DNA of 64,000 nt from an uncultured Acidobacteriota bacterium. Its GTDB lineage: Bacteria; Acidobacteriota; UBA4820; DSQY01. Below are positions 10,713-29,257 of the stretch, piece by piece (position 1 is the stretch's first letter; each line of letters begins with the position of its first letter). Under the pieces are notes generated by a model. The model had not been told where the DNA came from. It did no database searches and saw only the letters and a program-made list of their open reading frames with translations. The stretch is taken from NCBI GenBank assembly GCA_963772255.1, contig CAVYWK010000029.1:404645-468644 (forward strand), in the 5' to 3' direction. A program made the translations under genes and the position numbers.

Positions 10713-11718
10713 GGTTCGACCTCTTGGCCCTGAGCTCCTTGGCCGCTCCCCTGAACATTCCCACGATGACCACGCCCGTCATGATGGTGACGGCCGTCAT
10801 GATCACCCAGGAGGCCGCGCCTCCCAGACCCATCTGCTTCAAGATCACCGAAACCATGGCGCAGACCACGGTGGCGCCGAACATGAGCCGGATGCCGTAG
10901 CCCCGGATGTACTTGGTCGCGATGGTGCCGACCATGGCGCCGGGCGCCGCTCCCGCGAGCATGATGAGCACGGCGAGCAGTTCGATGCGTCCCTTGATCC
11001 CGTACGTGAACGCGCCGTAAAACCCGGCAAGCATGATGGTGAAGAGGTCGGTCCCCACGGCCACGTAGGTGGGGCACCCGATGAGGTACACCAGGGCGGG
11101 CATCATGAGCAGGCCGCCTCCGATACCCAGGAACCCCGCCAGGAGACCCACCATGAATCCCACGGCGGCGGGCAGCCAGAGGGAGCACTCCACGCCCGCC
11201 ATGGGCAGCTTCACCATGGGGGGGATTTTGATCTTATGGAGGGTTTCGTGCCACGTGATGGCGGATTTGGACTCGTCCTCGCCGGCCTTGTCCATCTGCC
11301 TCTTCTTGGCGAAATCGTAGAAGACCAGCAGGCCGATGAGGGCCAGGAAGACCACATAGACCCAGCGGATCACCGGACCCGCCAGGCCGAATCTCTCCAG
11401 ATACATGACGGCGCGAGCGCCTATCTCGATGCCGACCACGTCGAAGGACAGCATGATCAGGCCAAGCTTCACGTCCACGTTCCCGAACTTGGCGTGCCGG
11501 CGGGTCGAGATGATGGACTTGCCCGCCATGTGGCACAGGTCCGTACCCACGGCGAAGGGCATGGGGAAGCCGAAGATGTTCAGCGCCGGCGTGACCATCC
11601 AGGCGCCTCCCATGCCGAAGAACCCTCCGAGCACGCCCACGGCGACGCCGAGCAGGACGAGAAGGAGGGGGTTGATGGCCACGCCCGAAATCGGCAGCGT
11701 AATCGTCAGAAAGTCCAT
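10699..11718 (-). CDS. TauE/SafE (TSUP) family permease, long type (339 aa), copy 2
   Basis: Contains GVLGGFFGMGGAWMVTPALNIFGFP and AGFLGIGGGLLMMPALVYLIG with a central insert. It is the closest match to 61165-62241. Confidence 0.85.
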   Translation of the reverse strand: MDFLTITLPISGVAINPLLLVLLGVAVGVLGGFFGMGGAWMVTPALNIFGFPMPFAVGTDLCHMAGKSIISTRRHAKFGNVDVKLGLIMLSFDVVGIEIGARAVMYLERFGLAGPVIRWVYVVFLALIGLLVFYDFAKKRQMDKAGEDESKSAITWHETLHKIKIPPMVKLPMAGVECSLWLPAAVGFMVGLLAGFLGIGGGLLMMPALVYLIGCPTYVAVGTDLFTIMLAGFYGAFTYGIKGRIELLAVLIMLAGAAPGAMVGTIATKYIRGYGIRLMFGATVVCAMVSVILKQMGLGGAASWVIMTAVTIMTGVVIVGMFRGAAKELRAKRSNHEGR

Positions 11719-11727: not shown

Positions 11728-12024
11728 CTATTCCTTCACGTCGCGCTTGCTCAGGTCCAGGCCGATCATGGCGACCAGCTTGTCCATGAGGAATCCCAGG
11801 GTCACGCCCATGATGACCGTGAGCCCGATCGCCTCCAGCGTGAATAGGAGCCGGTTGGTGTTGTAAAGGTCGGCGAAGTAGAGGTTGAACCCGGTCAGTC
11901 CCCTCGTGTCCGCCACGTGGACGAGTTTCCCCTGTTTCTCGCCGCCCCCCGCCATGAGCGCCAGGGGCATGGAACACATGGCCAACCCCAGGGCCATCGC
12001 CAAAAATTTGACTCTCTTTCTCAT
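11728..12024 (-). CDS. Small membrane protein, putative partner of the long-type TSUP permease
   Basis: Has the signal-like N-terminus MRKRVKFLAMALGLAMCSMPLALMA. Its C-terminal motif GVTLGFLMDKLVAMIGLDLSKRD is shared with the C-terminus of the protein at 60597-61151 (GLCLGYLAEGFTDLIGLKFHKID). Confidence 0.6.
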   Translation of the reverse strand: MRKRVKFLAMALGLAMCSMPLALMAGGGEKQGKLVHVADTRGLTGFNLYFADLYNTNRLLFTLEAIGLTVIMGVTLGFLMDKLVAMIGLDLSKRDVKE

Positions 12025-12099
12025 CGCCCCCTCCCTTGCCTGAGCTTCATAGTAAGACTCTCTTGGAGAAGGCACGGAGGTCTGGTGATTTCACTCCAT

Positions 12100-12303: not shown

Positions 12304-13386
12304 ATGATGCCGGAAAGCTTGTCGAGGGGGCGAACCATGGGCAGGACGCGCGGGAGAGCCAGGGGACTTTGGGAGCCCAGCCGGCTCCTGAAGCGGACCA
12401 TTTTGGCCCTCCTTCTCACTCCCCCCGCATGCCTCATGCTCTTCGCCCTGGCCGTCCTCTTTTGGGGTCCCCACCGCTCGGCCGCGTTCTTCATCCCCCT
12501 CGTGACGGCGCTGGCTCTCTCCACGGCCCTGGGCTGGCCCCTCGCCGCCAAGCTGCGGCGTCAGCTCACGGCCCTCGCCAGGCAGCGCGACGCCTTCTAC
12601 GAGGAACTCCTTCGCCTCTCCAAGGCCGCAAGCCTGGGGGAAGTGGCCTCCAGCATCGCCCACGATCTGAACAATCCTCTGGCCATCATGCGGGAGGAAG
12701 CGGGCTGGATTCAGGACCTGATGAAGGGCGGGGACCTTCAGGGCGCGCACACCCAGGCGGAGATCGCCAACTCGCTTCAACAGATCGACATCCAGATCGA
12801 GCGTTCCAGGGAAATCACGCGGCGCCTCCTCCAGTGGGGGCGAGACTCCGCGCCCCCGACCCAGTCGGTGGACGTGAATCTCCTCCTCAACAAAACGCTT
12901 TACCTCCTGGAAAGCGAGCTTCAGACCGCCAGCGTCAACGTGGTCAAAGACCTTCCGCCGGGCCTTGCCCATGTGCGAGGTGGGGCTCCAGAATTGCGGC
13001 AGGTGTTCTTGAACCTCATGAAGAACGCCCTGGACGCCATGAAGGACCGCGGCGGCACCCTCACGCTGGTGACCCGCCCCGAGCCCGACGGCGTGAGAAT
13101 CGAAATCACCGACACGGGTCAGGGCATTCCGGCCGCCGCCATGGAGCACATTTTCGAACCCTTTTTCACCACCAAACCCGCCAGCGACGGTACCGGCCTC
13201 GGCCTGCCCATCAGCCGCTGGATCGTGGAGAAGCTCGGCGGACGCATCGAAGTGGAGAGCCGCGAGGGAGCGGGAACGTCTTTCCAGGTGACATTACCGG
13301 CCCAGCCCATCACACCAGACATGGCCCCGACGGTTGGTCGCGACCAAAGTGTCGTGGAGGTAGCCAAAGCGTCGCCCGGAGCCTGA
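12304..13386 (+). CDS. Membrane histidine kinase with a minimal sensor (2 TM / HisKA / HATPase)
   Basis: H-box SSIAHDLNNPLAIM, N-box FLNLMKNALDAM, and G-boxes DTGQGIP and GTGLGLPISRWIV. Confidence 0.85.
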   Translation: MMPESLSRGRTMGRTRGRARGLWEPSRLLKRTILALLLTPPACLMLFALAVLFWGPHRSAAFFIPLVTALALSTALGWPLAAKLRRQLTALARQRDAFYEELLRLSKAASLGEVASSIAHDLNNPLAIMREEAGWIQDLMKGGDLQGAHTQAEIANSLQQIDIQIERSREITRRLLQWGRDSAPPTQSVDVNLLLNKTLYLLESELQTASVNVVKDLPPGLAHVRGGAPELRQVFLNLMKNALDAMKDRGGTLTLVTRPEPDGVRIEITDTGQGIPAAAMEHIFEPFFTTKPASDGTGLGLPISRWIVEKLGGRIEVESREGAGTSFQVTLPAQPITPDMAPTVGRDQSVVEVAKASPGA

Positions 13387-13489
13387 TATGTTGTCCTCGG
13401 GTGACCTTAGCCGGTCATCCTGAATACCGCCCCGGGGGGACTCCCCGAGAAGGATCTCAAGTTTGGCGTCCCACTCAACGGAGGCACTC

Positions 13490-13906
13490 ATGACCCGGCC
13501 CATTCGTCTGCTCATCGTGGATGATGAGAAACGCCTCGTGGAAACATTGTCCAAACGGCTCACCGCCAGGGGGCTTTACGTGGAGGGCGTGCACTCGGGC
13601 GCCGAGGCGCTGGCCCTGGCACAGGCCAAGCCCTTCGACGTGGCGCTGCTGGACGTCCGCATGCCCGTCATGGACGGCATCACCGTCCTGCGCGAGATTA
13701 AAAAGATCCAGCCCCTGCTGCAGGTCATCATGCTCAGCGGCAACGCCTCCATCAACGCGGCCGTGGAGGGGATGCGGCTCGGCGCGGTGGAGTACCTGCT
13801 CAAGCCGGCCAACATCGAAGATGTTCTCGCCAAAATCGAGGAGGCATTCAACAAGAAGCGCCTCCAAGAAGAACGCCAGGCGGCACAGCGGGAGCCCGGA
13901 GGTTAG
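13490..13906 (+). CDS. Stand-alone receiver-domain response regulator (no output domain)
   Basis: Contains MTRPIRLLIVDDEKRL...DVALLDVRMPVMDG...MLSGN...YLLKP. The ORF-track start is 13463; I prefer the ATG at 13490. Confidence 0.85.
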   Translation: MTRPIRLLIVDDEKRLVETLSKRLTARGLYVEGVHSGAEALALAQAKPFDVALLDVRMPVMDGITVLREIKKIQPLLQVIMLSGNASINAAVEGMRLGAVEYLLKPANIEDVLAKIEEAFNKKRLQEERQAAQREPGG

Positions 13907-13912
13907 AGCCAA

Positions 13913-16558
13913 ATGAACTTGCGGCGATTCTTCCGACGACTCCTGGGGAGGGACCGGTGGAAGCCCCTGGAGGCGCGTCCCGATGCCAGGGCGGCGCTCC
14001 ATCTTCAGTACCTCACCTTCAAGGACCTCATCACGTCCAACGACGAGATCCTTGAAGTGATCGCCGACATGGAAAAGAAGCTGGAGGGCCGAACCACCTT
14101 CGGCATGACGTTCGTCCGCTCCAGGTCCGTCACCGCAGCGAGCCACGCCTACCGCATGATCCAGAACCTTAACGCCCTGTCCCATCGCCGTTACCAGGAA
14201 CTGTATGTGCGGTTTGCGGATATCCAGCAGTCGGTGGAGCGAGTCCTGGCCAGAGATCCGGGGCGGGAGAGGGGACCCCTCGTCCTGCCTCTGGAGTCCG
14301 TAACCCTGGATCACTTGGACCGGGTGGGCGGCAAGAGCGCGAACTTGGGGGAAATGAAGAATCGGGCCGGGCTCCCCGTGCCCGAGGGCTTCGCCATCAC
14401 GACCGGCGCTTGCATTGAATTTTTTGAGGCCAACCAGCTCCAGGACGAGATCCGCGCTCTGCTGTTGGGGCTCGATGTGGAGGACCTGCAGTCCGCCTCC
14501 GGAACCAGCGAGACCATTCGCCAGGCCATCCTGGCGGCGGTCCTTCCGCCCCGGATCGAAGCGGCCATTCTCGATGGTTACGCGCACCTGTCCTCCTCCT
14601 TGGGTTCCGGGCCGCGGGTCGCACTCCGGTCGAGCGCCCTCGGAGAAGACGGCGAATTGTCTTTTGCGGGACAGTACGTGAGCCTCCTGAACGTCCCGGC
14701 GGGCGAAATCCTGGCCGCCTACAAGGACGTCATCGCGGGGCTCTACACCCCCAGGGCCATCTGCTACCGGGCCATCAAGGGCATTCCCGACGAAGACGTC
14801 CCCATGGGCGTCTCCTGTCTGGCCATGGTGGACGCCGTGGCCAGTGGCGTGGCCTGTTCGGTGGATCCCAACCGTCCGGATGTGCGGCGCATGGTCATCA
14901 ACGGAGCCTGGGGCCTGGGCATCGGTACGGTGGATGGTTCGGTGAGCCCCGACACCTGGACCGTCTCCAAGGGCGAGCGGAATTCCGTCATGGCCCGCAT
15001 CGCAGGTTCCAAGGAGACGAGCGTGGAGTCACTGTCCCAGGGGGGCGTGGAGGCCGTGCCCGTACCCTCCGAACTCAGGCCTTCCCTGTGCCTCACCGAC
15101 GTGCAGGTGGAGGACCTGGCCCGCCTCGTGCAAGCCGCGGAGAGCCACTACGGCGTGCCCCAAGAGGTCGAGTGGGCGCTGGATCGGTCGGGACGGCTCT
15201 TCCTCCTCCAGGCCAGGCCACTCCATGCCAGTTCCCGGTGGACGGAAAAGGAAGAGGCACCCGGGGAAGTGGAGGGACACGCCCTGCTGCTGTCCGGGGT
15301 CTCGGCCTCCACCGGCTGCGGCAGCGGGCCCGCGTTCCTGTCCTTCGGTCCCGATGACATCGGGGGGTTCCCCGAGGGCGCGGTCCTCGTAGCCCGCCAC
15401 TCCCACCCGCAATATGTCCGGGTCATGGACCGGGCGTCCGCCATCGTGGCGGACATCGGCGCTCCCACCGGGCACATGGCTTCCCTCGCGAGGGAGTTCG
15501 GCATCCCCGCCGTGCTGGATGCGCACCGCGCGACGGCCGTCCTCAAGCCCGGCGATGTGGTCACCGTGGACGGCAACCGCGGTGCGGTCTATGAGGGCCG
15601 GGCGGAAGGCCTGCTTGCCGAGCAGGGGGAGCGGGGACCCAAGGGTATGTCGGGAACGCCCGTTCACTCGGTATTGACGGAGGTTTCCAGGCATGTCGTG
15701 ACCCTCAACCTCACCGATCCCAAATCGCCCGACTTCAGCGCCGGGTCGTGCCGGACGTTTCACGACATCGCGAGGTTTGTACACGAGAAGGCCTTCGAGG
15801 AGATGTTCCGAGTCAGCGACCATGTGTCCTACGAGGAACTCCGCTCCCTGCCCCTTTCGGCGCGGCTGCCCTTCACGGTGTACCTCATCGACCTGGGCGG
15901 AGGGCTGAATCGGCGGCCAGGGGCGCTGAACGTGAAGCAAGAGGAGGTCACCTCCCTGCCCATGACGGCCCTGCTGGCGGGCATGACCAACCCCGAGCTG
16001 CGCTGGTGGCAGCCGAAGGCGCTCAGCGTGAGCGGGGTCGCCTCGGTGACGACGCAGGCGATCTTCACGCCCTTTGTGGAATACGGGGAGAGAAAGCTCG
16101 GGGATCGGAGCTACGCCATCGTGGCGGAAGCCTACTGCAACTTCAGCTCGCGCATCGGCTACCATTTCGCGGCCGTGGATTCCTACTGCGGCGATTCCCC
16201 CAGCCGCAATTACATCAGCTTCCGATTCAAGGGTGGGGCCGCGGACGAGGCGCGCCGGGTCAACCGGTGCGTCCTTCTGGAGCGGATCCTGCTGGGCATG
16301 GACTTCCAGGTGGAGAGGCAGGGGGACCTGGTGAACGCCAGGATCAGGAAGTTCAGCATGGAATCCACGCTCAAACGCCTGGACCAGTTGGGCCGGCTCA
16401 TCGTCGCCACCCGCCAGCTGGACATGAGGATGGGGCAGCGATCCTCCGTGGACTGGTACGCCAAGGCGTTCACGGAGGGCAACTACCTGTTCGATCCCGA
16501 TTTTCATTCGGACACCGGCCGGAAGGACCCCTCGAGAATCGAGGTCCAGGAGTGTTGA
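13913..16558 (+). CDS. PpsA-like phosphotransferase: N-terminal helical region, PPDK_N-type ATP-grasp, phosphohistidine swivel, then an unrecognised ~300 aa C-terminal domain (copy 1)
   Basis: Contains GGKSANLGEM, RSSALGEDGELSFAGQY and the swivel histidine TGHMASLAREFGIPAV. The C-terminus (LNLTDPKSPDF...CRTFHDIARFVHEKAFEEMF...YHFAAVDSYC...NYISFRFKGGAA) lacks the PEP/pyruvate TIM-barrel motifs I can recognise. Confidence 0.8.
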   Translation: MNLRRFFRRLLGRDRWKPLEARPDARAALHLQYLTFKDLITSNDEILEVIADMEKKLEGRTTFGMTFVRSRSVTAASHAYRMIQNLNALSHRRYQELYVRFADIQQSVERVLARDPGRERGPLVLPLESVTLDHLDRVGGKSANLGEMKNRAGLPVPEGFAITTGACIEFFEANQLQDEIRALLLGLDVEDLQSASGTSETIRQAILAAVLPPRIEAAILDGYAHLSSSLGSGPRVALRSSALGEDGELSFAGQYVSLLNVPAGEILAAYKDVIAGLYTPRAICYRAIKGIPDEDVPMGVSCLAMVDAVASGVACSVDPNRPDVRRMVINGAWGLGIGTVDGSVSPDTWTVSKGERNSVMARIAGSKETSVESLSQGGVEAVPVPSELRPSLCLTDVQVEDLARLVQAAESHYGVPQEVEWALDRSGRLFLLQARPLHASSRWTEKEEAPGEVEGHALLLSGVSASTGCGSGPAFLSFGPDDIGGFPEGAVLVARHSHPQYVRVMDRASAIVADIGAPTGHMASLAREFGIPAVLDAHRATAVLKPGDVVTVDGNRGAVYEGRAEGLLAEQGERGPKGMSGTPVHSVLTEVSRHVVTLNLTDPKSPDFSAGSCRTFHDIARFVHEKAFEEMFRVSDHVSYEELRSLPLSARLPFTVYLIDLGGGLNRRPGALNVKQEEVTSLPMTALLAGMTNPELRWWQPKALSVSGVASVTTQAIFTPFVEYGERKLGDRSYAIVAEAYCNFSSRIGYHFAAVDSYCGDSPSRNYISFRFKGGAADEARRVNRCVLLERILLGMDFQVERQGDLVNARIRKFSMESTLKRLDQLGRLIVATRQLDMRMGQRSSVDWYAKAFTEGNYLFDPDFHSDTGRKDPSRIEVQEC

Positions 16559-19152
16559 TCGATCAGGTCCGCGGCTTTCTCAAGACCCGCTTCGGCCGGC
16601 TCTCGGAGGAGGAGGCCCGGAGCCGGCTGGCCCTGAAGTACGCCGCGTTCAAACGGCTCGTGGACGCCAACACGGCGGCCCTGGAGGTCATGGCGGACAT
16701 GCAGGCCAAAGCCACCGGCGAGTACCTGTTCGACCGGGCCTATGTGGACGAGTCCTTCGCGCGCCTTTCGGAACTCACTTCCGGCGTCGTACAGGATCTT
16801 CAGGATCTCTCGGACGGCCGTCACAAGGCGCTGAGCGCCGCCATGGAACAGGTGGCGAGCGCGGCCAGGCAGACCGCGGGAGAGGCACAGCGCCAGCACG
16901 GCGGCCCCGCGGTCATCGACCTGTCCTCCCTGAAAGGCGCGCCCCTCGAGCTCGTGGGCGGAAAGGTCCAGCGCCTCGGGGAGATCATGACCGAGGTGGG
17001 ACTCCCCGTACCCGACGGGTTCTGCGTCACCACCGCCGCGTGCGGCCTCTACCTCGAACAGAAAGACCTTCTGGGCGCCATCCGTGATCACATCGCCCAG
17101 ATCTCCCTCAAGGACAAGGAGGAGCTCAACAGGGCGAGTCAGGCCATCAAGTCGGCGATCATGGATGCCTCCTGGCCCGATGCCGTGTCGAAGTCCATCC
17201 TGGCGGCGTACGATGCCCTGGCCCACCGCGTGGGCCGCGGGGCGGGCCAGGACCTGAGGGTCTCGGTGCGGTCCAGCGCGGTGGGCGAGGACGGCGACTT
17301 CAGCTTCGCCGGGCAGTTCGACACCGTTCTCAACGTGAGCCGGGATGACTTGCTCCGAACCTGCCAGGAGGTTTTGGCGAGCCAATTCGGTCCGAGGGCG
17401 CTGGTCTACTTCAAGGCCAGGGGGGTGGGCGCCGGCGTCCTTCCCATGGCCATCGGCGTCGTCGCCATGCTCGACGCCCGCGCCAGCGGCGTCCTCTACA
17501 CGCGCGACCCCCAGGAGCCCGAATCGGACGCCCTCGTCGTGGCCGGGCTCTGGGGATTGGGCAGCCTGGCCGTGGACGGCTCCGTCAACCCCGACGTCTT
17601 CACCCTTTCGCGCGATCCGGAGCCTTCGCTTCGTGAGACGAAGGTGTCCGCCAAGAGCCGAATGTTGCTCTGCCGGGAAACCACGGGTCTGGTCGAAGTC
17701 GAGGTCCCCGGATGGATGAGGGACCAGCCCTGCCTGAGCAAGGACCAGGTCGCCCTCCTGGGCGCCTACGGCAAGAAGTTGGAGGAGCACTTCTCCAGGC
17801 CGCAGGATGTGGAATGGGCCTTGGATGCGAAAGACGATCTGTACATCCTCCAATCCAGGCCCCTGAGGATCGCCCCTTCGGTGAAACCCGGACAGAATGT
17901 GATGGCGCTGAGGCAGGGATTGACCCCCCTCCTTCAGGGCGGCGTCGTGGCCTGCAAGGGCTGCGCCGCCGGCCTCGTGCACGTGCTCTCCTCGGAGGAC
18001 GACGTGCACCTCGTCCCCCCCGGCGCCGTCGTGGTCGCCAGGTCCGCATCCCCGAAGCTGGCGGAGGCGCTGGACCGAGCCGCCGCCATGGTGACCGACG
18101 CGGGTTCCGCCGCCAGCCACCTGGCGACGGTGGCCAGGGAGTTCGGGATCCCCTCCATTTTCGGCGCACCGTCGGCCACCAGCCTTCTCAGGCAGGGCAT
18201 GATGGTGACCGTGGACGCGGATCTCGGAAATGTCTACGAAGGACGCGCCGAGGCCCTCCTCCAGGGCACGGCCAAGCACCCGGTCCACGCCGAAGAGTCA
18301 CCCCTCCTGAAGAGGTTCCGCGCGAGCCTCGCACACGTGACGCCTCTCCACCTGACCGACCCCCGAAGCCCCGGCTTCAAAGCCTCGAAGTGCAGGACGC
18401 TCCACGACATCCTCAGATTCGCCCACGAGATGGCGGTGGAGGAGATGTTCCTGGCCGGGAGCTTGGCGTCCAGGGGCACGAGGCATGCCCTGAGGCTGAA
18501 GAGCGCCTTGCCCGTGGACTTCTTCTTCATCGATCTGGGCGGAGGTCTGGGCGCCCTTCCGGAGGGGGGCCAGGTGACCCCTGAGGTCTTCGTGTGCCGT
18601 CCGCTGATCCCCTTGTGGCGCGGGATGGTGCAGGCGCCGTGGAGAACCGACGCGGCGGCGGGCGCAGGCGATATGGCCTCCCTGTTCGCGAACACGATGA
18701 CCGCGAGGGACGCCCTGGAGCAGGCCGCCTCGCCCAATTTCGTGATCGTGTCCGACGCCTATCTCAACCTGAGCTTCCGGCTCGGATACCACTTCTCCCG
18801 CGTGGACGCCTATCTCTCCGGCCGCGTCGAAGACAACTACGCGAGCTTCCTGTTCCACGGTGGAGCGGCGAACCTGGCCGGAAAGACGCGCAGGATCCGG
18901 TTCCTCGCGGGGGCGTTGGAGGCGGCCGGATTTCAAGTCCACCACCGGGAGGACGCCCTGTTCGCCCGGACCGGCCATGCCCAAGCCGCCGAAATGGACC
19001 GCAGGCTGGAAGACCTGGGAAGGCTCCTGGTGATCACGAGGCAGGCCGATACCCTCTTCGGCGACGAGACCGAAGTGGACAGGGCCCTGGCGGCATACCG
19101 GGCGGGCGACCTCTCTCTGGGGTTCCGGCCGGAAGGGGAGGGGACCCCATGA
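16552..19152 (+). CDS. PpsA-like phosphotransferase, copy 2, translationally coupled to copy 1
   Basis: The GTG at 16552 overlaps the upstream stop (GTGTTGA). Contains GGKVQRLGEI, RSSAVGEDGDFSFAGQF, the swivel histidine ASHLATVAREFGIPSIFG, and the same C-terminal family (CRTLHDILRFAHEMAVEEMF...YHFSRVDAYL...NYASFLFHGGAA). Confidence 0.8.
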   Translation: MLIDQVRGFLKTRFGRLSEEEARSRLALKYAAFKRLVDANTAALEVMADMQAKATGEYLFDRAYVDESFARLSELTSGVVQDLQDLSDGRHKALSAAMEQVASAARQTAGEAQRQHGGPAVIDLSSLKGAPLELVGGKVQRLGEIMTEVGLPVPDGFCVTTAACGLYLEQKDLLGAIRDHIAQISLKDKEELNRASQAIKSAIMDASWPDAVSKSILAAYDALAHRVGRGAGQDLRVSVRSSAVGEDGDFSFAGQFDTVLNVSRDDLLRTCQEVLASQFGPRALVYFKARGVGAGVLPMAIGVVAMLDARASGVLYTRDPQEPESDALVVAGLWGLGSLAVDGSVNPDVFTLSRDPEPSLRETKVSAKSRMLLCRETTGLVEVEVPGWMRDQPCLSKDQVALLGAYGKKLEEHFSRPQDVEWALDAKDDLYILQSRPLRIAPSVKPGQNVMALRQGLTPLLQGGVVACKGCAAGLVHVLSSEDDVHLVPPGAVVVARSASPKLAEALDRAAAMVTDAGSAASHLATVAREFGIPSIFGAPSATSLLRQGMMVTVDADLGNVYEGRAEALLQGTAKHPVHAEESPLLKRFRASLAHVTPLHLTDPRSPGFKASKCRTLHDILRFAHEMAVEEMFLAGSLASRGTRHALRLKSALPVDFFFIDLGGGLGALPEGGQVTPEVFVCRPLIPLWRGMVQAPWRTDAAAGAGDMASLFANTMTARDALEQAASPNFVIVSDAYLNLSFRLGYHFSRVDAYLSGRVEDNYASFLFHGGAANLAGKTRRIRFLAGALEAAGFQVHHREDALFARTGHAQAAEMDRRLEDLGRLLVITRQADTLFGDETEVDRALAAYRAGDLSLGFRPEGEGTP

Positions 19153-20957
19153 GGCGCCTTTACCCAGTTCTTCGCATGCTGCCGTTCCTGGGCATTCTGG
19201 CCACGGCCTTGCTGCTGATTTTCGCGTTCGTGCTGGGGCTGGTGTCCTTCGGCAAGATGCGCCAGGTGGTCACGGAGGAGTTCAACGGCCAGCAGCTCGT
19301 TCTGGCGCAGAACCTGGCGGCGCTCATCCAACAGGACCTGGATTTCCTGCGCCGCGAGTTGACCGTGCTCAACCTCTCGCCCTCCGTCCAGTACAGCGAA
19401 TCGCCCTCGCTGGTGAGCCGCCTGAAGGTGACTCTGGGCTCCATTCAGGAGGGCGAGCTTCTGGAAATCCGCCGCGTCTCAGCCGATGGAATGGAGGCCG
19501 TCGTCCTGGACCGTTCGGGCGTGGTCAGGACCGAACCGGGGCCCTTCACGGACGACCCCTGCTTCATCTGGGGGGTCTCTCCGAGAAACCGCGGCCGCAT
19601 CCTCATGGGCGAGCCGTCGCGACATTTGCTGGAGCGTTATGGCGGCCGACCCCTGATGGTCATGGCCATCCCGCATTACCAGACCTCTTCGGACGAGGCC
19701 CACCCCCATCCCACGGGGCAATTCTCCGGCGCGCTCATGTTCGTGCTCGACGCGTCGGCCATCGCCGGCAGGTTCACCGACCACGCCCGTTCGGGCAACA
19801 CGGGGTATGCCTGGGTCATCGACGAGCACGGGACGTTTCTCGCGCATCCCATGAACTCGTTCGTGGGGAAGAACGCCTTCACGGTTCGGACGCAGCTCAA
19901 CCCCTCCATAGGATTCGAGGGGATCAACGCCATCATGAGCGACCGGATGCTCACGGGCCAGGAGGGCACGGGCTCCTATATCTCCGGCTGGCACCGCCAG
20001 GCCGTCGGGCCCATCCACAAGCTCATCGGATTCTGCCCCGTCCGCATCGATCCGGAGCGGCCCAACCGGCGGTGGTCCGTGGCGGTAGTTGCCCCGGTGA
20101 GCGAGGTCCACGGGCTGGTGGCATCGCTCTTCATGCGCCAATTCTTCATGCAGGCCGCCATCGTCTTGGCCATCCTGGCCGGCGGCCTGTCGCTCTTCCG
20201 GCTGGAACGCCACTGGACGCGGATCAAGAAGCAGCGCGAGCGGGAGGTCAACCTCAGTTCGAGGCTCGCGTCCCTGGGCATGCTGTCCGCGGGCGTGGCC
20301 CACGAGATCAACAACCCCATCGCCATCATTCTCGGATTCACGGATGTCCTGCTCGAGGAAACTCCGCCGGACACGAAGGCTTACGGGCATCTCAAGATCA
20401 TCGAGCGGCAGGGCCTGGCCTGCAAAAAGATCGTGGAGAACTTGGGGCGCTTCGCCAGGATTCCCGAACAGCGCGACGAGACGACGGATCTCAACGAAGA
20501 GGTGCGCCGCGTGCTGTCCATGGTCCAGAACACGCTCCTGACGGAGAAGGTCGAGTGTCACGCCGAACTCCATGAGGATTTGCCCCGGGTCATGGGCGAT
20601 CCCCAGGGTCTCCAGCAGGTTCTTTTGAACCTCATCACCAACGCCCGAGGGGCCATGAAGAAGAGCGGGGGTACCCTCACGGTGGAGACGCGCAGGCTGG
20701 ATGACCGTGTGGCCGTGTCCGTGAGCGACACGGGCCATGGCATCCCCAAGAAAGACCTGGGGCGGATTTTCGACCCCTTCTTCACCACCAAAGCTCCAGG
20801 AGAAGGGACGGGGCTCGGCCTCTCCATCAGCCACGGCATCGTCGAGAAGGCCGGGGGAAAAATAACCGTGGAGAGCACCCACGAGGACGATGCAGGTGCC
20901 GGGCACTCCGGTACGACCTTTACCGTGGTCCTGCCCGTCGTGGCCCAGAAATCCTGA
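19149..20957 (+). CDS. Sensor histidine kinase with a Cache-like extracytoplasmic domain
   Basis: ATGA overlap with the upstream stop. Has a TM segment, then GYAWVIDEHGTFLAHPMNSFVGKNAF, a second TM segment, H-box GVAHEINNPIAII, and G-box GTGLGLSISHGIV. Confidence 0.85.
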   Translation: MRRLYPVLRMLPFLGILATALLLIFAFVLGLVSFGKMRQVVTEEFNGQQLVLAQNLAALIQQDLDFLRRELTVLNLSPSVQYSESPSLVSRLKVTLGSIQEGELLEIRRVSADGMEAVVLDRSGVVRTEPGPFTDDPCFIWGVSPRNRGRILMGEPSRHLLERYGGRPLMVMAIPHYQTSSDEAHPHPTGQFSGALMFVLDASAIAGRFTDHARSGNTGYAWVIDEHGTFLAHPMNSFVGKNAFTVRTQLNPSIGFEGINAIMSDRMLTGQEGTGSYISGWHRQAVGPIHKLIGFCPVRIDPERPNRRWSVAVVAPVSEVHGLVASLFMRQFFMQAAIVLAILAGGLSLFRLERHWTRIKKQREREVNLSSRLASLGMLSAGVAHEINNPIAIILGFTDVLLEETPPDTKAYGHLKIIERQGLACKKIVENLGRFARIPEQRDETTDLNEEVRRVLSMVQNTLLTEKVECHAELHEDLPRVMGDPQGLQQVLLNLITNARGAMKKSGGTLTVETRRLDDRVAVSVSDTGHGIPKKDLGRIFDPFFTTKAPGEGTGLGLSISHGIVEKAGGKITVESTHEDDAGAGHSGTTFTVVLPVVAQKS

Positions 20958-20997
20958 GCGACAAGGGCGGGGCCGGGTTCATCGCGAGGAGGTTTGA

Positions 20998-21402
20998 ATG
21001 ACAGAGAAGCTTCTGATCTTGGACGATGAAGTGGACATGCTCACGCTGCTGGAGACCATCATCCGCGCCAAGACTCCCCACGATGTGGTAGCCACCAACA
21101 ATCCCCTGGAGATCGAGGAACTGATGGCCACCCACTCCTTCTCGCTCGTCATCTCGGACTTGAAAATGCTCGGCAGGGACGGGTTGGAGGTCATCGATAT
21201 CGTCCATCGGGCCGATGCCACCATCCCGGTGATCATCATCACCGCCTACGGCAGTCTGGAGTCCGCCCAGGAGGTCGTGCGCCACGGCGCCTACGACTAC
21301 ATCACCAAGCCCTTCAGAAAGGAGCAGGTTCTCATCACCATCGAACGCGCCATGGAATGGAGGCGCATCACGCTCGAAAATCTCAGGCTCAAGGAGAAAT
21401 AG
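20998..21402 (+). CDS. Stand-alone receiver-domain response regulator
   Basis: Contains MTEKLLILDDEVDML...LVISDLKMLGRDG...IIITAYGS...YITKP. Confidence 0.85.
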   Translation: MTEKLLILDDEVDMLTLLETIIRAKTPHDVVATNNPLEIEELMATHSFSLVISDLKMLGRDGLEVIDIVHRADATIPVIIITAYGSLESAQEVVRHGAYDYITKPFRKEQVLITIERAMEWRRITLENLRLKEK

Positions 21403-21486
21403 GACGACGTGGAGATTTCGTTGCTCGGGGGAGGCTACGCGGGGAGGAGGCGGGCTTAACCATCATCCCCATTAGGAGGAGGGGCC

Positions 21487-22326
21487 ATGGCGATCATTAC
21501 GGTTTCCAGGGGATCCTTGGGCTTGGGCGCGTCGCTGGCGGAGAATCTCGCCGGGGTGCTGGGATACCCGTGCTTGGGACGCGAGGTCGCCCTTGAAGTG
21601 GCGGAAAAGGTCGGGATTTCGCCGGCGCTCATGATGAAGAAGGTCGAAGAGAGTCCGAACCTCTGGGAGAGGATGACCACGGAGCGCAGGGCCTATGTCA
21701 TCGCCATGCAGGTGGCCCTCTCTGAACGGGCCATGGGGGGCCAGCTCGTCTACCACGGGTATGCGGGAAATCTCCTTTTGAAAGGAATGCCCGCGCTGCT
21801 GAGGGTGCGGGTCATCGCTCCCATGGAGGTCCGCGTGCCCATGGTCATGGAGGAGCGGCACCTGGGGCCGGAGGAGGCGGAGGCGCACATCAAGGAGATG
21901 GATGACACGCGGGCCCGATGGACGAAATTCGTCTTTGGCGTGGACTGGCGGGACCCCTCTCTCTACGACCTCGTCCTGAACCTCGGCGTCATTTCCGTGG
22001 GTACGGCCTGCGAAGCCTTGGCAGGCATCGCGCGGAGCGCGGAATTGGCGGTGGACGAGGCGGTCCTGGGCAAATTGCGCGACTTCGTGTTGGCCTCGCG
22101 GATCCGGCTGGCGCTCGTCACCAGCCACCTGTCGGGGGCGGCCGACCTGGATGTGGAGGTCCAGGATGGCATCGCATTCATCAGGGGCGACATCCCGAGG
22201 GATCCCCGATACGCCAATTCGGAGGCCCGTTTCACGAAAGCGCTCACCGACCTGGTCCTCTCCATCAAGGGCGTGAAGCACCTCACGCTGGGCGTCAGAG
22301 CCCTCCCCTCAGCGGCAGTGGATTGA
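21487..22326 (+). CDS. Cytidylate-kinase-like (Cytidylate_kin2-type) protein with a BON-like C-terminus, copy 1
   Basis: The N-terminus MAIITVSRGSLGLGASLAENLAGVLGYP has a degenerate P-loop with no GK[ST]. Also contains LRVRVIAPMEVRV...RARWTKFVFGVDWRDPSLYDLVLN, and the C-terminus DLDVEVQDGIAFIRGDI...IKGVKHLTL. Confidence 0.7.
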   Translation: MAIITVSRGSLGLGASLAENLAGVLGYPCLGREVALEVAEKVGISPALMMKKVEESPNLWERMTTERRAYVIAMQVALSERAMGGQLVYHGYAGNLLLKGMPALLRVRVIAPMEVRVPMVMEERHLGPEEAEAHIKEMDDTRARWTKFVFGVDWRDPSLYDLVLNLGVISVGTACEALAGIARSAELAVDEAVLGKLRDFVLASRIRLALVTSHLSGAADLDVEVQDGIAFIRGDIPRDPRYANSEARFTKALTDLVLSIKGVKHLTLGVRALPSAAVD

Positions 22327-22349
22327 CCGGGCGAGAGGGCGAGGCTGCC

Positions 22350-23866
22350 ATGGCGGACATCAAACCGGACTTGACCAAGGTGGTGCTGGACCCGGCCCTG
22401 GCCGAAAGGCTGAGGACCGCCCAAGACTTCATCGTCTCCCGGCCCAGGATCAGCATTCGGCTCCGGTTCATGGTCAGCCTGGCCCTGTGCTTCTGCCTCT
22501 GCGCCCTGGCCGCCCTCGTCAACTGGACCTATCTCCACCAGGTGCGCAGCCGCCTCCTCCTCCTGGGAACCACCGAGAGCGTCGCCTTCGATCTCGAACA
22601 GGCCCGCCGCTTTGAAAAGGACTTTTTCCTCTACGGCACGAATCTCGACGATGCGGTACGGTACGCCGAATCCGCCGCGACGCGCCTCCAGTCCGAGACA
22701 CCGCAAATAACCGAAGCGGCCGCGCCCGGCGAAGTACTCGCCATCGCGGGACACCTCCGGGAGTACCGCCGATCTGCTTACCTACTGCCAGGCCATGGCG
22801 CGAGCCAGAATCCTGGATCCGTCGCGAAGGCAGGCGATCGAGGCCAGCCTCCGCCAGCAGGGATCCACGGTGACGGCGCTCGTGGAGGAATTGACCTCCC
22901 GCGAGCGGAAGACCGTGACCCACATGCTCAAGGTCTCCGAGACGCTGCCCATGGTTCTGCTCATCGCCCTGCTCATCTTGTTCGTCCTCATTTCCTACTT
23001 CTTCACGGAGGCCCTCCTCAATCCCATTCGCAGGTTTCAGGCCTATACCCGCCGCATCGCGGAGGGTGACTTCACGCTGATCCGCCCCGCGAGGACCTAT
23101 CGGGACGAATTTTCCGACCTGGCCCTCGCCGTCAACCGCATGCTGGCCGACCTCCAGGCGACCCAGCAGCGGTGCGTGGAGGCAGGAAAGCTGGCCGCCG
23201 TCGGAACCATCACCTCGGGCATCGCCCACGAGATCAACAACCCGCTGAACAACATCTCGCTGACCACCGAAGCGCTCATGGAGGATTTCAAGACCATGAG
23301 CGACGAAAAGAAGTGGAATTTTCTGCAGGACATCTATTTCGAAACCGAGCGGGCCAGTGAAATCGTCAAGAGCCTCCTGGATTTCACGCGCACGGAAAAG
23401 ATCGAGCGAGTCCCGCTGGATGTGAGCGGTGTGGTCCTGAGCACGCAGAGGTTGCTCCAGAACGAAATGATGCTCAACGGCGTGATTTTCGACTGCGACC
23501 TTCCCTCAGGACCTTCCCCAGATCAAGGGAGCCGCGAACCAGCTCCGTCAGGTCTTCCTGAACCTGTTCATCAACGCCATCCACGCCATGCCCCGCGGCG
23601 GAACCCTGCGCGTCAAGGCCAGCCTCCACGAGGAGGAGCGGGTATGCGTGGAGGTTCAGGACCAGGGCGAGGGGATTCCCCCGGAGGTCCTGCCCCACGT
23701 GTTCGATCCTTTCTTCACGACGAAGGAGCCCGGGAAAGGGACGGGCCTGGGACTCTCCGTGAGCTTGAGCATCATCAGGAGGCACGGCGGCGACATCAAG
23801 GTGGAGAGCGAGCCGGGCAAAGGGACCACTTTCCATGTTTGCCTGCCCCGGGCGGACAGGGCATAA
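22350..23866 (+). CDS. Sensor histidine kinase, paralog 2 of 3, with two apparent frameshifts (about 22769 and about 23505)
   Basis: Three colinear frames carry, in order, QARRFEKDFFLYGTNL; then HAMP, H-box GIAHEINNPLNNI; then QVFLNLFINAIHAMPRGGTL...GTGLGLSVSLSII. Together they give the full architecture of 6227-7852. Confidence 0.8.
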
Positions 23867-23893
23867 TGGAGAGAGACTGAGGGAGACCGCCGA

Positions 23894-24259
23894 ATGACGA
23901 CCGAGAGGCGAGTGCTGGTTCTGGATGATGAACCCATCGTAGGGGACAGGCTGAAGGACGCCTTTGAGAAGGAGGGGCTGGAGGTCGAGGTTTTCAGGGA
24001 CAGTGGACAGGCCATCGAGCGTCTCAAGGAGCAGGCTTTCGGCGTGCTTGTGACCGACATGAAAATGAGCGGGCCTTCGGGGATGGACGTGCTCAGATTC
24101 GTGAAGGAGAAAAACCCCTCCACCAGCGTCATCGTCATCACCGGTTACGCCACCATCGAAACCAACTACGAGGCCCAGGCTCTGGGTGCGGACCACTTCG
24201 TCCCCAAACCCTTCAAGATGAAGGACCTGGTCAAGCTCGTTCTGAAGGCTTTCAACTAG
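23894..24259 (+). CDS. Stand-alone receiver-domain response regulator
   Basis: Contains RRVLVLDDEPIVG...VLVTDMKMSGPSG...VITGYAT...FVPKP. Confidence 0.85.
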   Translation: MTTERRVLVLDDEPIVGDRLKDAFEKEGLEVEVFRDSGQAIERLKEQAFGVLVTDMKMSGPSGMDVLRFVKEKNPSTSVIVITGYATIETNYEAQALGADHFVPKPFKMKDLVKLVLKAFN

Positions 24260-25809
24260 GACCGGTCCTGACCCCGGGCATCGGACTCCGAACGGGGCTG
24301 CCCGAGCTCGGGCACCCTAGCCGCGGGGAGCACGACGATCAACTCGGTGTGCTTGCCCGGAGAGCTCTCGGCGCGTATGTCCCCTCCGTGTTGCCGCACG
24401 ATCCCCAGGCTCACCGAGAGTCCCAGCCCAGTACCCTTGCCCTTGGACTTAGTCGTGAAGAACGGGTCGAAGATATAGGGGAGGATGTGGCTCGGAATCC
24501 CCTTGCCGTCGTCGGAGACGATCACCTGCAAGTAACCGGGTTCCCGCGCCGCCTCGGCCTTGATCCAAACGTGGCCCCCCTTCCCGACGGCGTCCACGGC
24601 GTTCAGGATTAAATTCAGGAACACCTGCGAGATGGATTGTCGGTCGCCGTGAATAGGCGGCAGGTTCTCGGGCACCTCCATGAGGATCTTGGCGCCCGAG
24701 AGTTTGATCTGGTTGGCGGCCAGATTGGCCGTTCCCCGAAGCAGCTCTCCCACGTCCAACCGCTCGGTGCGGATCTCGCTCTCCCTGGCAAAATCCAGCA
24801 GGTTTCGCACGATTCGCTGCGCCCGGCTGCCCTGGTCCACCAGGTCGTCCACCATGGCCAGCTTTTCGGCGTCCGGCAGGACGGGGAAATCCTCCTTGAG
24901 CATCTCGGCGGTCAGGATGATGTTGTTGATGGGGTTGTTCAACTCGTGAGCCACGCCCGCCGTCAGGGTTCCCACGGCCTGGAGCTTGTGGGACTGAACC
25001 AGAACCTCCTGGCGGTGGGCCACCTCCCGCATCATGGTGTTGAGCGCCACGGCCAGGTCCGAGAACTCGTCCCGATACCTTCGGGCCGGTGCGATGGGCG
25101 TAAAGTCCCCCATGGAAATGCGCTGGGTCGTGGCCATGAGGCGGCCCAGGGGCCCCAGCATCTGCCGCGCGAGAAAGTTCACGATGACGGCCATCAGCAC
25201 CAGGAGAACGATCAGGAAAAGGACGGGCAGACGCTTGAAGAGCGCCAGTGTCTGGTTGACGCTGTTCCTCTCCTTCTGCGCCAATTCCAGGGCGAAGGCC
25301 ACCATCTGAGAGCCGTGGGCCCTCAATTCCGTCTCGATGGAGCTTTTCCTTTCGGCTTGGTCAGGAGGCCCCCGTTTCGCCATCTCCGCCAGATTTCCGA
25401 GCAGCGTCTCGTATCGATCGAGGTGCTCTCTCATGCGCCTGAGATCCGCCGTCGTGAGGACCTTGAACGCCTCGGACTCTGACGAATTGAGGAGGATGCG
25501 GGCGTTGGCGATGTGTTCCTGGACGTCCTGCAGGTTGGTGCCGTACAGGAAGTAGTTCTTTTCGAAGCGCCGCGCTTGCTGGATTTCCAGGGTATACCGA
25601 TCCGCCACCTCCAGAAACTTGAGACGGACCTCGAGCCTGGACAGCATGATCCATGCTGCGGCGGTCACCGCGGCCGCCACGAGGAAGAGGGCGAGCAGTC
25701 CCAAAGAGAGCCTCGCCCTGATCCCGAAACTGGGCCTCTGGAGGAGGGCCCTCTCGGCGTTCGTGATCTCGACCGGCTCGGGTATCTCGGGAGGCGCGGG
25801 TACCGTCAT
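24256..25809 (-). CDS. Sensor histidine kinase, paralog 3 of 3
   Basis: Sensor motif QARRFEKNYFLYGTNL, HAMP-like RRYRDEFSDLAVALNTM, H-box GVAHELNNPINNI, and G-box GTGLGLSVSLGIV. Confidence 0.85.
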   Translation of the reverse strand: MTVPAPPEIPEPVEITNAERALLQRPSFGIRARLSLGLLALFLVAAAVTAAAWIMLSRLEVRLKFLEVADRYTLEIQQARRFEKNYFLYGTNLQDVQEHIANARILLNSSESEAFKVLTTADLRRMREHLDRYETLLGNLAEMAKRGPPDQAERKSSIETELRAHGSQMVAFALELAQKERNSVNQTLALFKRLPVLFLIVLLVLMAVIVNFLARQMLGPLGRLMATTQRISMGDFTPIAPARRYRDEFSDLAVALNTMMREVAHRQEVLVQSHKLQAVGTLTAGVAHELNNPINNIILTAEMLKEDFPVLPDAEKLAMVDDLVDQGSRAQRIVRNLLDFARESEIRTERLDVGELLRGTANLAANQIKLSGAKILMEVPENLPPIHGDRQSISQVFLNLILNAVDAVGKGGHVWIKAEAAREPGYLQVIVSDDGKGIPSHILPYIFDPFFTTKSKGKGTGLGLSVSLGIVRQHGGDIRAESSPGKHTELIVVLPAARVPELGQPRSESDARGQDRS

Positions 25810-25818
25810 CGGACCGCC

Positions 25819-26664: not shown

Positions 26665-26799
26665 GGGCGACCTCCTGCCCCCGCAGTTGCCGGGGCCCAA
26701 AGTTGACTCGGACCGGCGACACCGCTCGCCGGCGATCCCATTCACCGCCACCAACTCCGACCCCGGCTCGATCCTCCCCGGTCCGGCGAAAGGTCGGTC

Positions 26800-27618: not shown

Positions 27619-27678
27619 GGTGCGCCCTCCGTCCGCCGGCGGCGCTCCGTCCCTCGGACCGGCACGCCGGGATCGGAC

Positions 27679-28092: not shown

Positions 28093-28117
28093 GGATGCCT
28101 CCCCATTGTGGGTCCTG

Positions 28118-29209: not shown

Positions 29210-29257
29210 CGCTCTATCCCCCGCGGACCGTGGTACGGTACGCCCCCGGCGACCTGG

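Follow-up and report, generated by a model that had tools for sequence, protein, structure and literature searches.

Within a 64-kb stretch of the genome of an uncultured acidobacterium (hereafter the window, meaning the whole stretch of DNA that was analysed), histidine kinases and receiver-only response regulators are gathered around two genes for proteins resembling PEP synthase (PpsA), and no DNA-binding output is encoded with them. In the reading that we prefer, to which we give a probability of roughly 60%, the block is one of at least three neighbouring copies of a signalling and transport cassette of sulfur-respiring anaerobes, and would tune the transport of sulfur oxyanions through protein contact.

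In this cassette, a TSUP anion permease and its small membrane partner are combined with one or two PpsA-like proteins (PpsL), with sensor histidine kinases and with a receiver made of one domain. The cassette is widespread but little studied in sulfate reducers, and is known genetically from Desulfovibrio. For sulfate reducers, there is no settled view of how sulfate, thiosulfate and sulfite are imported or how this import is regulated; the TSUP permeases are among the candidates for the carriers, though their role is as yet unproven (PMC5840216).

Gene content of the block and of the surrounding island

The features of the locus are collected in Table 1. The plus-strand order proposed in the initial annotation (kinase, receiver, two PpsA-like genes, dCache kinase, receiver, kinase-like protein, kinase, receiver) agreed with Pfam, and both of its start/stop overlaps were present when the sequence was read directly: 7 nt between PpsL1 and PpsL2 (GTG at 16552, TGA at 16556-16558) and ATGA at 19149-19152 between PpsL2 and HK2. 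A gap of 6 nt separates REC1 from PpsL1. The REC1 reading frame opens at 13463 or 13490, and a GGAGG ribosome-binding site precedes the ATG at 13490. HK1 has two adjoining TM helices with the external loop nearly absent (TM-like segments at 31-81) and an H-box, HDLNNP, at residue 120.

Table 1. Features of the block and of the neighbouring cassettes (positions in the window)
Feature	Position	Strand	Basis or context
TSUP (TauE/SafE) permease	10699..11718	-	Pfam TauE 2.9e-44
DVU0150-family small membrane protein	11728..12075	-	PF28216 at orthologous position in L001, L087, L088
HK1, histidine kinase, intramembrane type	12304..13386	+	Pfam HisKA + HATPase_c
REC1, bare receiver, 138 aa	13490..13906	+	Response_reg 1e-27 only
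PpsL1, PpsA-like swivel-His phosphotransferase	13913..16558	+	Pfam PPDK_N + PEP-utilizers
PpsL2, PpsL1 paralogue, 36% identity	16552..19152	+	Pfam PPDK_N + PEP-utilizers
HK2, dCache sensor histidine kinase	19149..20957	+	Pfam dCache + HisKA + HATPase_c
REC2, bare receiver, 134 aa	20998..21402	+	Pfam Response_reg only
Cytidylate-kinase-like protein	21487..22326	+	Pfam Cytidylate_kin2 6.7e-36
HK3, TM-sensor-TM-HAMP-HisKA-HATPase_c kinase	22350..23866	+	Frame plots, tblastn
REC3, bare receiver, 121 aa	23894..24259	+	Pfam Response_reg only
Second cassette, convergent	24256..35239	-	Pfam scans
HAMP kinase	24256-25809	-	Second cassette
DUF202 protein	25819-26754	-	Second cassette
Kinase-like/BON	26800-27618	-	Second cassette
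REC4, bare receiver	27679-28092	-	Second cassette
TSUP	28118-29209	-	Second cassette
Kinase-like protein, 512 aa	29258-30796	-	Second cassette
PpsL3	30891-33467	-	Second cassette
Alph_Pro_TM partner	33528-34322	-	Second cassette
TSUP, tail ...KGH	34325-35239	-	Second cassette
Third cassette, start (TSUP 61165-62241, REC5 63250-63654)	61165..63654	+	Pfam

A scan of positions 11900-24500 for σ70 promoters and terminators gave no plus-strand terminators and promoters at chance level only; gene spacing and this absence of terminators hint that HK1 to REC3 may form a single transcription unit. The 12-kb operon put forward initially stands as a gene block, but it is conserved only as an 8.7-kb core, the tail being variable in comparison with three related loci (L001, L087 and L088). 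The cytidylate-kinase-like gene is an accessory part, missing from L001 and L087 and differing in presence among relatives; its product has a degenerate P-loop, with no GK[ST] in the N-terminus. It had been described as a kinase-like/BON protein, and the kinase-like part was recovered, while Pfam did not detect a BON domain there, though it did so in the paralogues. Divergent from the operon, the TSUP permease is paired with the small DVU0150-family protein (likely start at 12024, giving 98 aa). This pair also lies opposite the operon in the three related loci, and an HMM made from the small reading frame matched TSUP-adjacent partners at many related loci. The region before HK1 contains sequence blocks that are kept among close relatives.

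HK3 proved to be one gene spread over three frames, as indicated by GC3 frame plots, translations and a tblastn search with the intact 515-aa orthologue from L087 as query. The shifts lie near 22770 and 23500, and HATPase_c is in the third frame. The kinase listed as the fourth in the initial annotation is present as a gene, but the reading frame assigned to it (22795-23880, in which Pfam gives HAMP and HisKA only) is merely a fragment of it. The gene is intact in an 88%-identical relative. As the dsrAB reading frames of the window are full-length (47896-48999 and 49065-50207), a general indel error across the assembly is not established.

The block sits in an island of ~70 kb surrounding the sat/apr/qmo/dsr genes. 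This island holds all five PpsL genes of the genome, six of its eight TSUP matches, five of its seven kinase-like/BON genes and seven bare receivers, and the five PPDK_N genes of the genome all fall within 2% of its length. Past the end of the window, the third cassette continues with a dCache kinase, REC6 and PpsL4, and on the opposite strand with a kinase-like/BON gene, PpsL5 and REC7. A gene for a PilT-like ATPase is found at 516-1670.

The PpsL protein family

PpsL1 is composed of an N-terminal three-helix domain, an ATP-grasp domain, a His domain (H521) and a C-terminal domain of ~310 aa. In an alignment of 13 family members, which included all five paralogues of the source genome, the ATP-grasp motifs GGK, RSSA, FAGQ, EW and Q.RP and the catalytic His were invariant, and the C-terminal domain had invariant residues of its own (C, H, D, R, H, E, R, H). 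PpsL1 matched the PEP synthase model NF005057 at 361 bits, against a cut-off of 598 bits, over model positions 6-472 of 798; its sequence matches in the PDB end near residue ~600, and Pfam gave no match to PEP-utilizers_C, the PEP barrel, in PpsL1 or PpsL2. PpsL is an ATP-grasp and swivelling phospho-histidine enzyme in which the place of the PEP/pyruvate barrel is taken by an uncharacterised domain at the C-terminus, and hundreds of 'PEP synthase' annotations are probably wrong.

AF2 folds the C-terminal domain with confidence (pLDDT 80) into a mixed alpha/beta structure, which has no significant match in the PDB by sequence or by Foldseek (best query TM-score 0.20). The domain is found in 1626 clusters at 50% identity, almost invariably at residues ~560-870 of proteins of 840-900 aa. 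For the N-terminal 135 aa, modelled by AF2 as a three-helix bundle, Foldseek returned generic helical matches only (best E-value 0.83); this domain has no invariant His and no significant match to the Hpt or DHp fold. Fusions of PpsL with a receiver, a kinase or a TSUP permease were absent from 83 loci.

PpsL has in common with PEP synthase and pyruvate phosphate dikinase (PPDK) the ATP-grasp domain, the swivelling phospho-histidine domain, their motifs and the catalytic His, but it lacks the TIM barrel, scores below the equivalog cut-offs and carries the extra N-terminal three-helix domain and the novel C-terminal one. As judged from NCBIfam matches, it resembles rifampicin phosphotransferase (RPH) and the PigC/RedH-type proteins, which, as PpsA-superfamily proteins without the barrel, apply the ATP-grasp domain and swivel His to a substrate other than pyruvate. 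The swivel His domain of RPH lies at its C-terminal end, whereas that of PpsL occupies the middle of the protein, ahead of the new domain; the RPH-type matches to PpsL fall in two separate stretches, and its NCBIfam scores are far below the RPH/PigC/RedH cut-offs.

Conservation of the cassette and its link to sulfur metabolism

The neighbourhoods of 65 PpsL genes from several phyla, each with at least 3 kb of flanking sequence, were compared. A bare receiver was located within 600 bp of PpsL in 48% of them and within 3 kb in 63%. At a distance of 6 kb or less, 62% had a TSUP gene and 74% a kinase, and only six of the 65 had none of the three nearby. A kinase was found within 6 kb in 23 of 26 receiver-PpsL pairs, so that a kinase-less design is not usual, and the idea that PpsL replaces the kinase was rejected. 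In the receiver tree, PpsL-adjacent receivers group together: REC1 is a member of a clade made up of bare receivers encoded at PpsL loci, and REC4 clusters with those located after PpsL in cassettes of Desulfobacterota.

The TSUP-PpsL-REC cassettes of relatives are often headed by a kinase and either a receiver protein of 460-520 aa, the size of NtrC, or a NarL-type regulator (confirmed in locus L064), and 32% of the 65 family genes have a receiver protein of >300 aa within 6 kb. These regulators imply that the lack of a transcriptional output is a trait of the locus in the source lineage and not of the system, and that transcriptional control, which belongs to the system at other loci, could be exerted on the source locus by a gene encoded far away.

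The PpsL family tracks APS reductase in Acidobacteriota. Among 401 genomes of this phylum, 26 encode both PpsL and AprB, 2 PpsL only, 10 AprB only and 363 neither (p=1.8e-30); outside the family to which the source organism belongs, the corresponding counts are 6, 0, 10 and 360 (p=2e-9).

The closest known counterpart is a gene set of Desulfovibrio called the 'nitrate cluster' (DVU0251-DVU0245 / Dde_0597-Dde_0605; Korte et al. 2014, PMC4001038). Mutants disrupted in its permease, its bare receiver or its PpsA-like gene are resistant to nitrate, as are kinase mutants in G20, and growth of the G20 mutants on thiosulfate is poor (PMC4001038); the genes of the cluster are placed in one pathway, suspected to transport thiosulfate or nitrate. 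The common phenotype of the permease, receiver and PpsA-like mutants fits a shared non-transcriptional pathway acting on transport. Both loci belong to sulfate reducers and contain a TauE permease, a sensor kinase, a receiver-only regulator of ~120 aa and a barrel-less protein with PPDK_N and the mobile His, in the order kinase, receiver, PpsA-like. From the published domain list, DVU0246 may be an ortholog of PpsL. The nitrate cluster is single-copy; its kinase is of the PAS/HAMP type, and it includes a dual-specificity phosphatase and a binding protein resembling PtxB. None of these three turned up at the source locus, the latter two as judged from general Pfam scans that covered the ORFs of the window and its flanks. 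The source locus differs in its tandem PpsA-like pairs, three kinase-receiver pairs, kinase-like/BON proteins and at least three cassettes around sat/apr/qmo/dsr. In Dissulfuribacter, a 'PEP synthase', a TauE-associated membrane protein and TauE, with neighbouring locus tags, rise together during thiosulfate disproportionation (PMC13490349).

Possible action of the receivers

REC1-8 carry the DD, D, T/S and KP residues at the expected positions, and HK1, HK2 and HK3 have a HisKA H-box and HATPase_c (the ATPase domain of HK3 being in the shifted frame); the kinase and receiver residues of a classical two-component system are accordingly in place, and its DNA-binding output is missing. It had been claimed that all five response regulators of the window are receiver-only and that the 64 kb hold no helix-turn-helix or sigma-54 activator gene, and both claims were upheld by Pfam: the regulators (138, 134, 121, 137 and 134 aa) have the receiver domain alone, and no transcription factors were found among ~70 window ORFs, in which the DNA-related matches were only RecX and an IS1595 transposase. 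A DNA-binding or Hpt partner just outside the window would have spoken against non-transcriptional signalling, and none was found in ~100 kb around it. In a six-frame search of the whole genome, the nearest matches to Sigma54_activat and Trans_reg_C were ~190-200 kb upstream on the contig, and Hpt, GerE and LytTR had no match on the whole contig. The phosphorelay that had been envisaged was not borne out, as no component of one was found. The three Hpt (PF01627) matches of the genome are all on other contigs and of CheA type; on contig C1, a bare receiver adjoins an Hpt match, probably in a chemotaxis cluster. All seven receivers of the island are bare, compared with ~30% genome-wide.

Protein contact is the usual mode of action of single-domain response regulators such as those of the CheY, DivK, CpdR and Spo0F types. 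The present system has in common with these the intact kinases, the full acidic pocket with T/S and K, and the lack of an output domain, but their partners (FliM, DivL/PleC, ClpXP and Spo0B/Hpt) are not encoded nearby. We infer that HK1, HK2 and HK3 would each phosphorylate the bare receiver encoded just downstream. Having no output domain, the receivers would exert their effect through contact with the PpsL proteins encoded beside them and/or with the permeases, and PpsL, as an ATP-driven His-phosphotransferase, would then modify a putative acceptor. The net effect would be that uptake or export of a sulfur oxyanion, presumably sulfate, thiosulfate or sulfite, is tuned for the adjacent sat/apr/qmo/dsr pathway. 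Post-translational control of transport at the source locus, as suggested initially, is plausible: no DNA-binding or Hpt partner is local, and the linkage of bare receivers to PpsA-like and TSUP genes recurs in several phyla. The broader notion of non-transcriptional signalling agrees with the Desulfovibrio mutants, but less well with the DNA-binding regulators often carried by relatives.

In the cassette, TSUP permeases are linked with output-less receivers and with a phospho-histidine enzyme that is driven by ATP. If the receivers control the enzyme or the permease, dissimilatory sulfur metabolism would be subject to post-translational control at this point; the nitrate-resistance mutants of Desulfovibrio would then be explained, which is relevant to the control of oil-field souring. 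A bolder version, which we regard as a long shot, is that PpsL represents a new class of signalling phosphotransferase, whose swivel His is loaded by ATP and whose C-terminal domain phosphorylates a protein and not a metabolite, gating sulfur-oxyanion transport. The candidate acceptors would be the Asp of the partner receiver, with PpsL as a non-HisKA phosphodonor, or the C-terminal tail of the partner TSUP permease, with its conserved ...GGH.

The output might instead be transcriptional and remote, with the bare receivers serving as phosphate sinks or shuttles, or with the kinases also serving a distant DNA-binding regulator, for example one of the ~23 σ54 activators of the genome; that no regulator lies nearby would in this case be due to a rearrangement in the source lineage. 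The regulators heading the cassettes of relatives would suit this explanation, as would the 27 Sigma54_activat matches of the genome, many with receivers, and the conserved blocks before HK1, which could be operator sites. We nevertheless consider it rather unlikely, because the kinases and receivers of the island occur at ~1:1 in adjoining pairs, the contig lacks Hpt, and the nearest DNA-binding response regulator is ~190 kb away. Moreover, a σ54 promoter scan of the window gave 27 matches against 23.5 expected, with none in the operon leader, so that these matches were discarded as evidence for control by a σ54 activator (EBP). Bare receivers also accompany PpsL where a DNA-binding regulator is present beside it, which argues that they have a role of their own.

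That the PpsL proteins are metabolic enzymes phosphorylating a small molecule, with the kinases and receivers merely co-regulated or neighbouring and not acting on them, appears improbable. PEP synthase, PPDK and rifampicin phosphotransferase do phosphorylate small molecules, the invariant polar cluster of the C-terminal domain resembles an active site, and neither a signalling gene nor a permease gene lies within 6 kb of six of the 65 family genes; against this, the 6-nt gap and the 4-7-nt overlaps tie receiver, enzymes and kinase together, the close linkage to a bare receiver is kept in nearly half of the family across phyla, and the receiver and enzyme mutants of Desulfovibrio have a common phenotype (PMC4001038). 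Least credible of all is that the receivers are CheY-like and target motility or chemotaxis. They are single-domain proteins of CheY size and the window has the PilT-like ATPase gene, but scans of the window and flanks found no che genes (cheA, cheW or MCP) and no flagellar switch genes, the CheA-type Hpt matches being on other contigs, and the receivers are linked to PpsL and TSUP genes and have their best NCBIfam matches among receiver domains of the NtrC, AtoC and NtrX types.

The plus-strand block and its core

Pfam and NCBIfam scans confirmed the gene order that the initial annotation had given for the plus-strand block, namely kinase, receiver, two genes for PpsA-like swivel-His enzymes (PpsL), dCache kinase, receiver, kinase-like gene, kinase and receiver. 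The start/stop overlaps claimed there are real (GTG16552/TGA16558 and ATGA19149-19152), 6 nt separate the end of REC1 from the start of PpsL1, with GGAGG ribosome-binding sites ahead of both, and no terminator-like site was found on the plus strand between 11900 and 24500. The acidic pair, phospho-Asp, T/S and K are present in all receivers and the H-box in all kinases; HK1 has two adjacent TM helices and hardly any external loop, an arrangement that corresponds to an intramembrane-sensing kinase.

Coordinates of cassette genes and related features (window positions unless prefixed; L004 is a flank of the same genome; plus-strand genes assigned by Pfam/NCBIfam, sat by Pfam)
Feature	Position	Strand	Assignment
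HK1	12304-13386	+	HisKA + HATPase_c
REC1	13490-13906	+	bare receiver
PpsL1	13913-16558	+	PpsA-like
PpsL2	16552-19152	+	PpsA-like
HK2	19149-20957	+	dCache kinase
REC2	20998-21402	+	bare receiver
Cytidylate_kin2 protein	21487-22326	+	Cytidylate_kin2
REC3	23894-24259	+	bare receiver, after HAMP kinase
Second cassette	24256-35239	-	TSUP, Alph_Pro_TM partner, PpsL3, kinase-like, TSUP, REC4, kinase-like/BON, DUF202, HAMP kinase
Cytidylate_kin2 protein	26800-27618		Cytidylate_kin2
Cytidylate_kin2 protein	29258-30796		Cytidylate_kin2
sat	37031-38299		sat
Cytidylate_kin2 protein	38379-39230		Cytidylate_kin2
Cytidylate_kin2 protein	L004:8405-9214		Cytidylate_kin2

The ORF at 22795-23880, previously listed as the fourth kinase, does represent a kinase, but its boundaries did not hold: it is a fragment that lacks the ATPase domain and ends out of frame in Pro/Gly/Arg-rich sequence. 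GC3 frame plots and three-frame translation showed that 22350-23866 holds one HAMP kinase gene (HK3), whose frame shifts near 22770 and again near 23500; by tblastn, all three frames were matched by its 515-aa orthologue, which is intact on a contig of 88% identity. These shifts may be errors or may mark a real pseudogene. The second shift resembles one extra G in 'CAGGACC'. The alanyl-tRNA synthetase is also seemingly encoded in two ORFs (1796-3622 and 3982-4971), the first continuing from RecX-like sequence, a split that is possibly a further frameshift or an ORF-calling artefact.

In the close relatives L001, L087 and L088, a DVU0150-TSUP pair (TSUP, TauE/SafE permease) divergent from HK1-REC1-PpsL1-PpsL2-HK2-REC2 is kept, but the tail after REC2 varies, being absent in L001, HK3-REC3 in L087, and a kinase-like gene followed by HK3, where the contig ends, in L088. 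Thus, the 12-kb unit originally described resolves into a conserved 8.7-kb core and accessory genes. Between the DVU0150-TSUP pair and HK1 lies an AT-rich divergent promoter region (12020-12310) with blocks conserved in L087 and L088 (e.g., CCTGTGGCAAATACCCCATTC, GGTATGCAG, GGTGTTAGAATGA) that could be operator or promoter elements; σ54 -24/-12 spacing is absent from these blocks.

The sulfate-reduction island

The genome comprises 3.49 Mb in 38 contigs at 65% G+C, with the window at C29:404645-468644 (C29, contig CAVYWK010000029.1), and the closest relatives of the window's PpsA-like proteins come from Thermoanaerobaculaceae/Acidobacteriota MAGs. Core sulfate-reduction genes recognized by Pfam inside the window are sat, dsrMKJOP-like genes, dsrC, dsrAB, qmoABC and aprBA; directly after dsrB, in the usual dsrD position, is an 82-aa ORF (47657-47905) with no Pfam match at E<=0.01. 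Just upstream of the window (L005:16186-17535 = C29:400830-402179) are a RuBisCO large-subunit-like gene and an 810-aa receiver+TPR protein.

The genome's five PPDK_N genes are all located at C29:418-476 kb, three of them inside the window; PpsL4 and PpsL5, just past it, each adjoin a bare receiver, one together with a dCache kinase and the other with a kinase-like/BON gene. A census with HMMs derived from proteins of the window itself placed 5/7 kinase-like and 6/8 TSUP matches of the genome, its only DVU0150-family gene and seven bare receivers within the 70-kb island around these genes, which makes up 2% of the genome. All receivers of the island are bare (7/7), compared with approximately 30% genome-wide.

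Five Cytidylate_kin2 proteins were found, four with a BON match, and all lack the N-terminal Walker A GK[ST] (e.g., MAIITVSRGSLGLGAS); elsewhere, 11% of family genes have a copy within 6 kb. These proteins are probably pseudokinases that bind nucleotides and form an accessory component of the cassette of TSUP, PpsL, bare receiver and kinase. One is encoded between dsrP and sat, and another is 512 aa long with C-terminal TM helices.

By the initial annotation's own account, cognate DNA-binding regulators or Hpt proteins encoded just outside the window would speak against its proposal of post-translational control. A scan of approximately 70 window ORFs, the intergenic gaps and 20 kb on each side returned RecX and an IS1595 transposase as the only DNA-related matches; up to 100 kb away, every other response regulator consists of a receiver alone or of receiver+TPR. 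Six-frame searches of the whole genome for regulator output families and Hpt yielded 27 Sigma54_activat, 3 Trans_reg_C, 3 GerE, 2 LytTR and 3 Hpt matches. On C29, the nearest of these is approximately 190-200 kb upstream, and the contig has no match to Hpt, GerE or LytTR; thus, no such partner is encoded close to the window, and the objection foreseen in the initial annotation did not materialize. The IS1595-family transposase (Zn-ribbon + DDE; 59336-60340) separates aprB from the third cassette and may indicate a site at which the island was rearranged.

Linkage and co-occurrence of the cassette

At least 598 related loci were found in species-representative genomes, mostly of Desulfobacterota and Nitrospirota, with some in Acidobacteriota and few in other phyla. 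For the 65 family genes flanked by 3 kb or more of sequence, a bare receiver was present within 600 bp of PpsL in 48% of cases and no farther than 3 kb away in 63%, and a TSUP (62%) or a kinase (74%) within 6 kb; only 6/65 had no receiver, TSUP or kinase nearby. A recurring order in Desulfobacterota is kinase, 460-520-aa receiver protein, TSUP, PpsL and bare receiver, and a Desulfovibrionaceae locus reads, by Pfam, HisKA_3 kinase, NarL-type regulator, TSUP, PpsL, dCache kinase, bare receiver and PpsL. In a tree of 200 receivers, those adjoining PpsL group together: REC1, REC5 and REC7 share a supported clade made up of bare receivers of PpsL loci, and REC4 falls among receivers that follow PpsL. 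No PpsL fusion with a receiver, kinase or permease was seen. The arrangement that the initial annotation described is real and non-random.

The link extends to sulfur respiration. Of 401 Acidobacteriota genomes, 28 encode the PpsL C-terminal domain and 36 encode AprB (both 26, PpsL only 2, AprB only 10, neither 363; Fisher p=1.8e-30), and the two PpsL-only genomes are 67-73% complete. With the window's own family left out, the association persists (6, 0, 10 and 360, respectively; p=2e-9); in many genomes of that family, aprB lies 10-20 kb from PpsL on the same contig.

PpsA-like enzymes and their possible regulation

The PEP synthase model is matched by PpsL at positions 6-472 of 798 only (361 bits against a 598-bit cut-off), and solved PEP synthase structures align only as far as residue ~600. 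The enzymes look catalytically competent from their sequences, because 13 aligned family members, among them all five paralogues, share without exception the ATP-grasp motifs and the swivel His (H521). At the N-terminus, ~125 residues make up a three-helix bundle that lacks an invariant His and gave no informative match. The last ~310 residues constitute a conserved domain in which Cys, His, Asp, Arg and Glu residues are invariant. AF2 models this domain confidently as a mixed alpha/beta fold (pLDDT 80, pTM 0.70), and no PDB relative was found by sequence or fold (best TM-score on query 0.20); its profile recovered 1626 clusters at 50% identity, and the domain almost always occupies the same position in proteins of 840-900 aa.

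Published Desulfovibrio systems resemble the cassette. The nitrate cluster DVU0251-DVU0245/Dde_0597-0605 of Korte et al. encodes a TauE permease, a hypothetical protein and a PtxB-like protein together with a PAS/HAMP kinase, a receiver-only regulator of 120 aa, a protein with PPDK_N and the mobile domain, and a dual-specificity phosphatase (PMC4001038). Nitrate resistance results when a transposon disrupts the permease, receiver or PpsA-like gene, and in G20 also the kinase; on thiosulfate, mutants of G20 are slightly impaired (PMC4001038). These authors proposed a leaky thiosulfate transporter, leaving its native function open (PMC4001038). The DVU0150-TauE module is induced in syntrophy, where sulfate is absent (PMC4265775), and has the σ54 activator DVU0151 as its assigned regulator (PMC4641369). 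In thiosulfate disproportionation by Dissulfuribacter, an annotated 'PEP synthase', a TauE-associated membrane protein and TauE, identified by annotation and with neighbouring locus tags, rise together (PMC13490349), and TSUP proteins are abundant in sulfate reducers, without assigned role (PMC5840216).

Linkage and the shared Desulfovibrio phenotypes suggest, as initially proposed, that the output is not transcriptional and would act on the PpsA-like enzymes or on transport, and this is the best-supported idea. Related cassettes, however, often include a DNA-binding regulator, and thus the whole system has a tier of transcriptional control, which at this locus is either missing or remote. As to how the receivers are phosphorylated, ordinary kinase-to-receiver transfer is the economical reading, because a kinase lies no more than 6 kb from 23/26 receiver-PpsL pairs. 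The boldest reading, in which PpsL itself would phosphorylate a protein, at the receiver Asp or the permease C-terminal His, seems improbable. One TSUP subtype has a conserved ...LLSY.GGH C-terminus (L014, L030, L054, L055, L061, L066, L067, L074, L075, L078 and L082), and in 8/11 such permeases of the related loci its gene lies just upstream of the PpsA-like gene. A terminal His beside a His-phosphotransferase gene may be significant. In the window, the TSUP at 34325-35239 ends in ...SYAKGH and the copy at 8699-9703 in ...PGGR.
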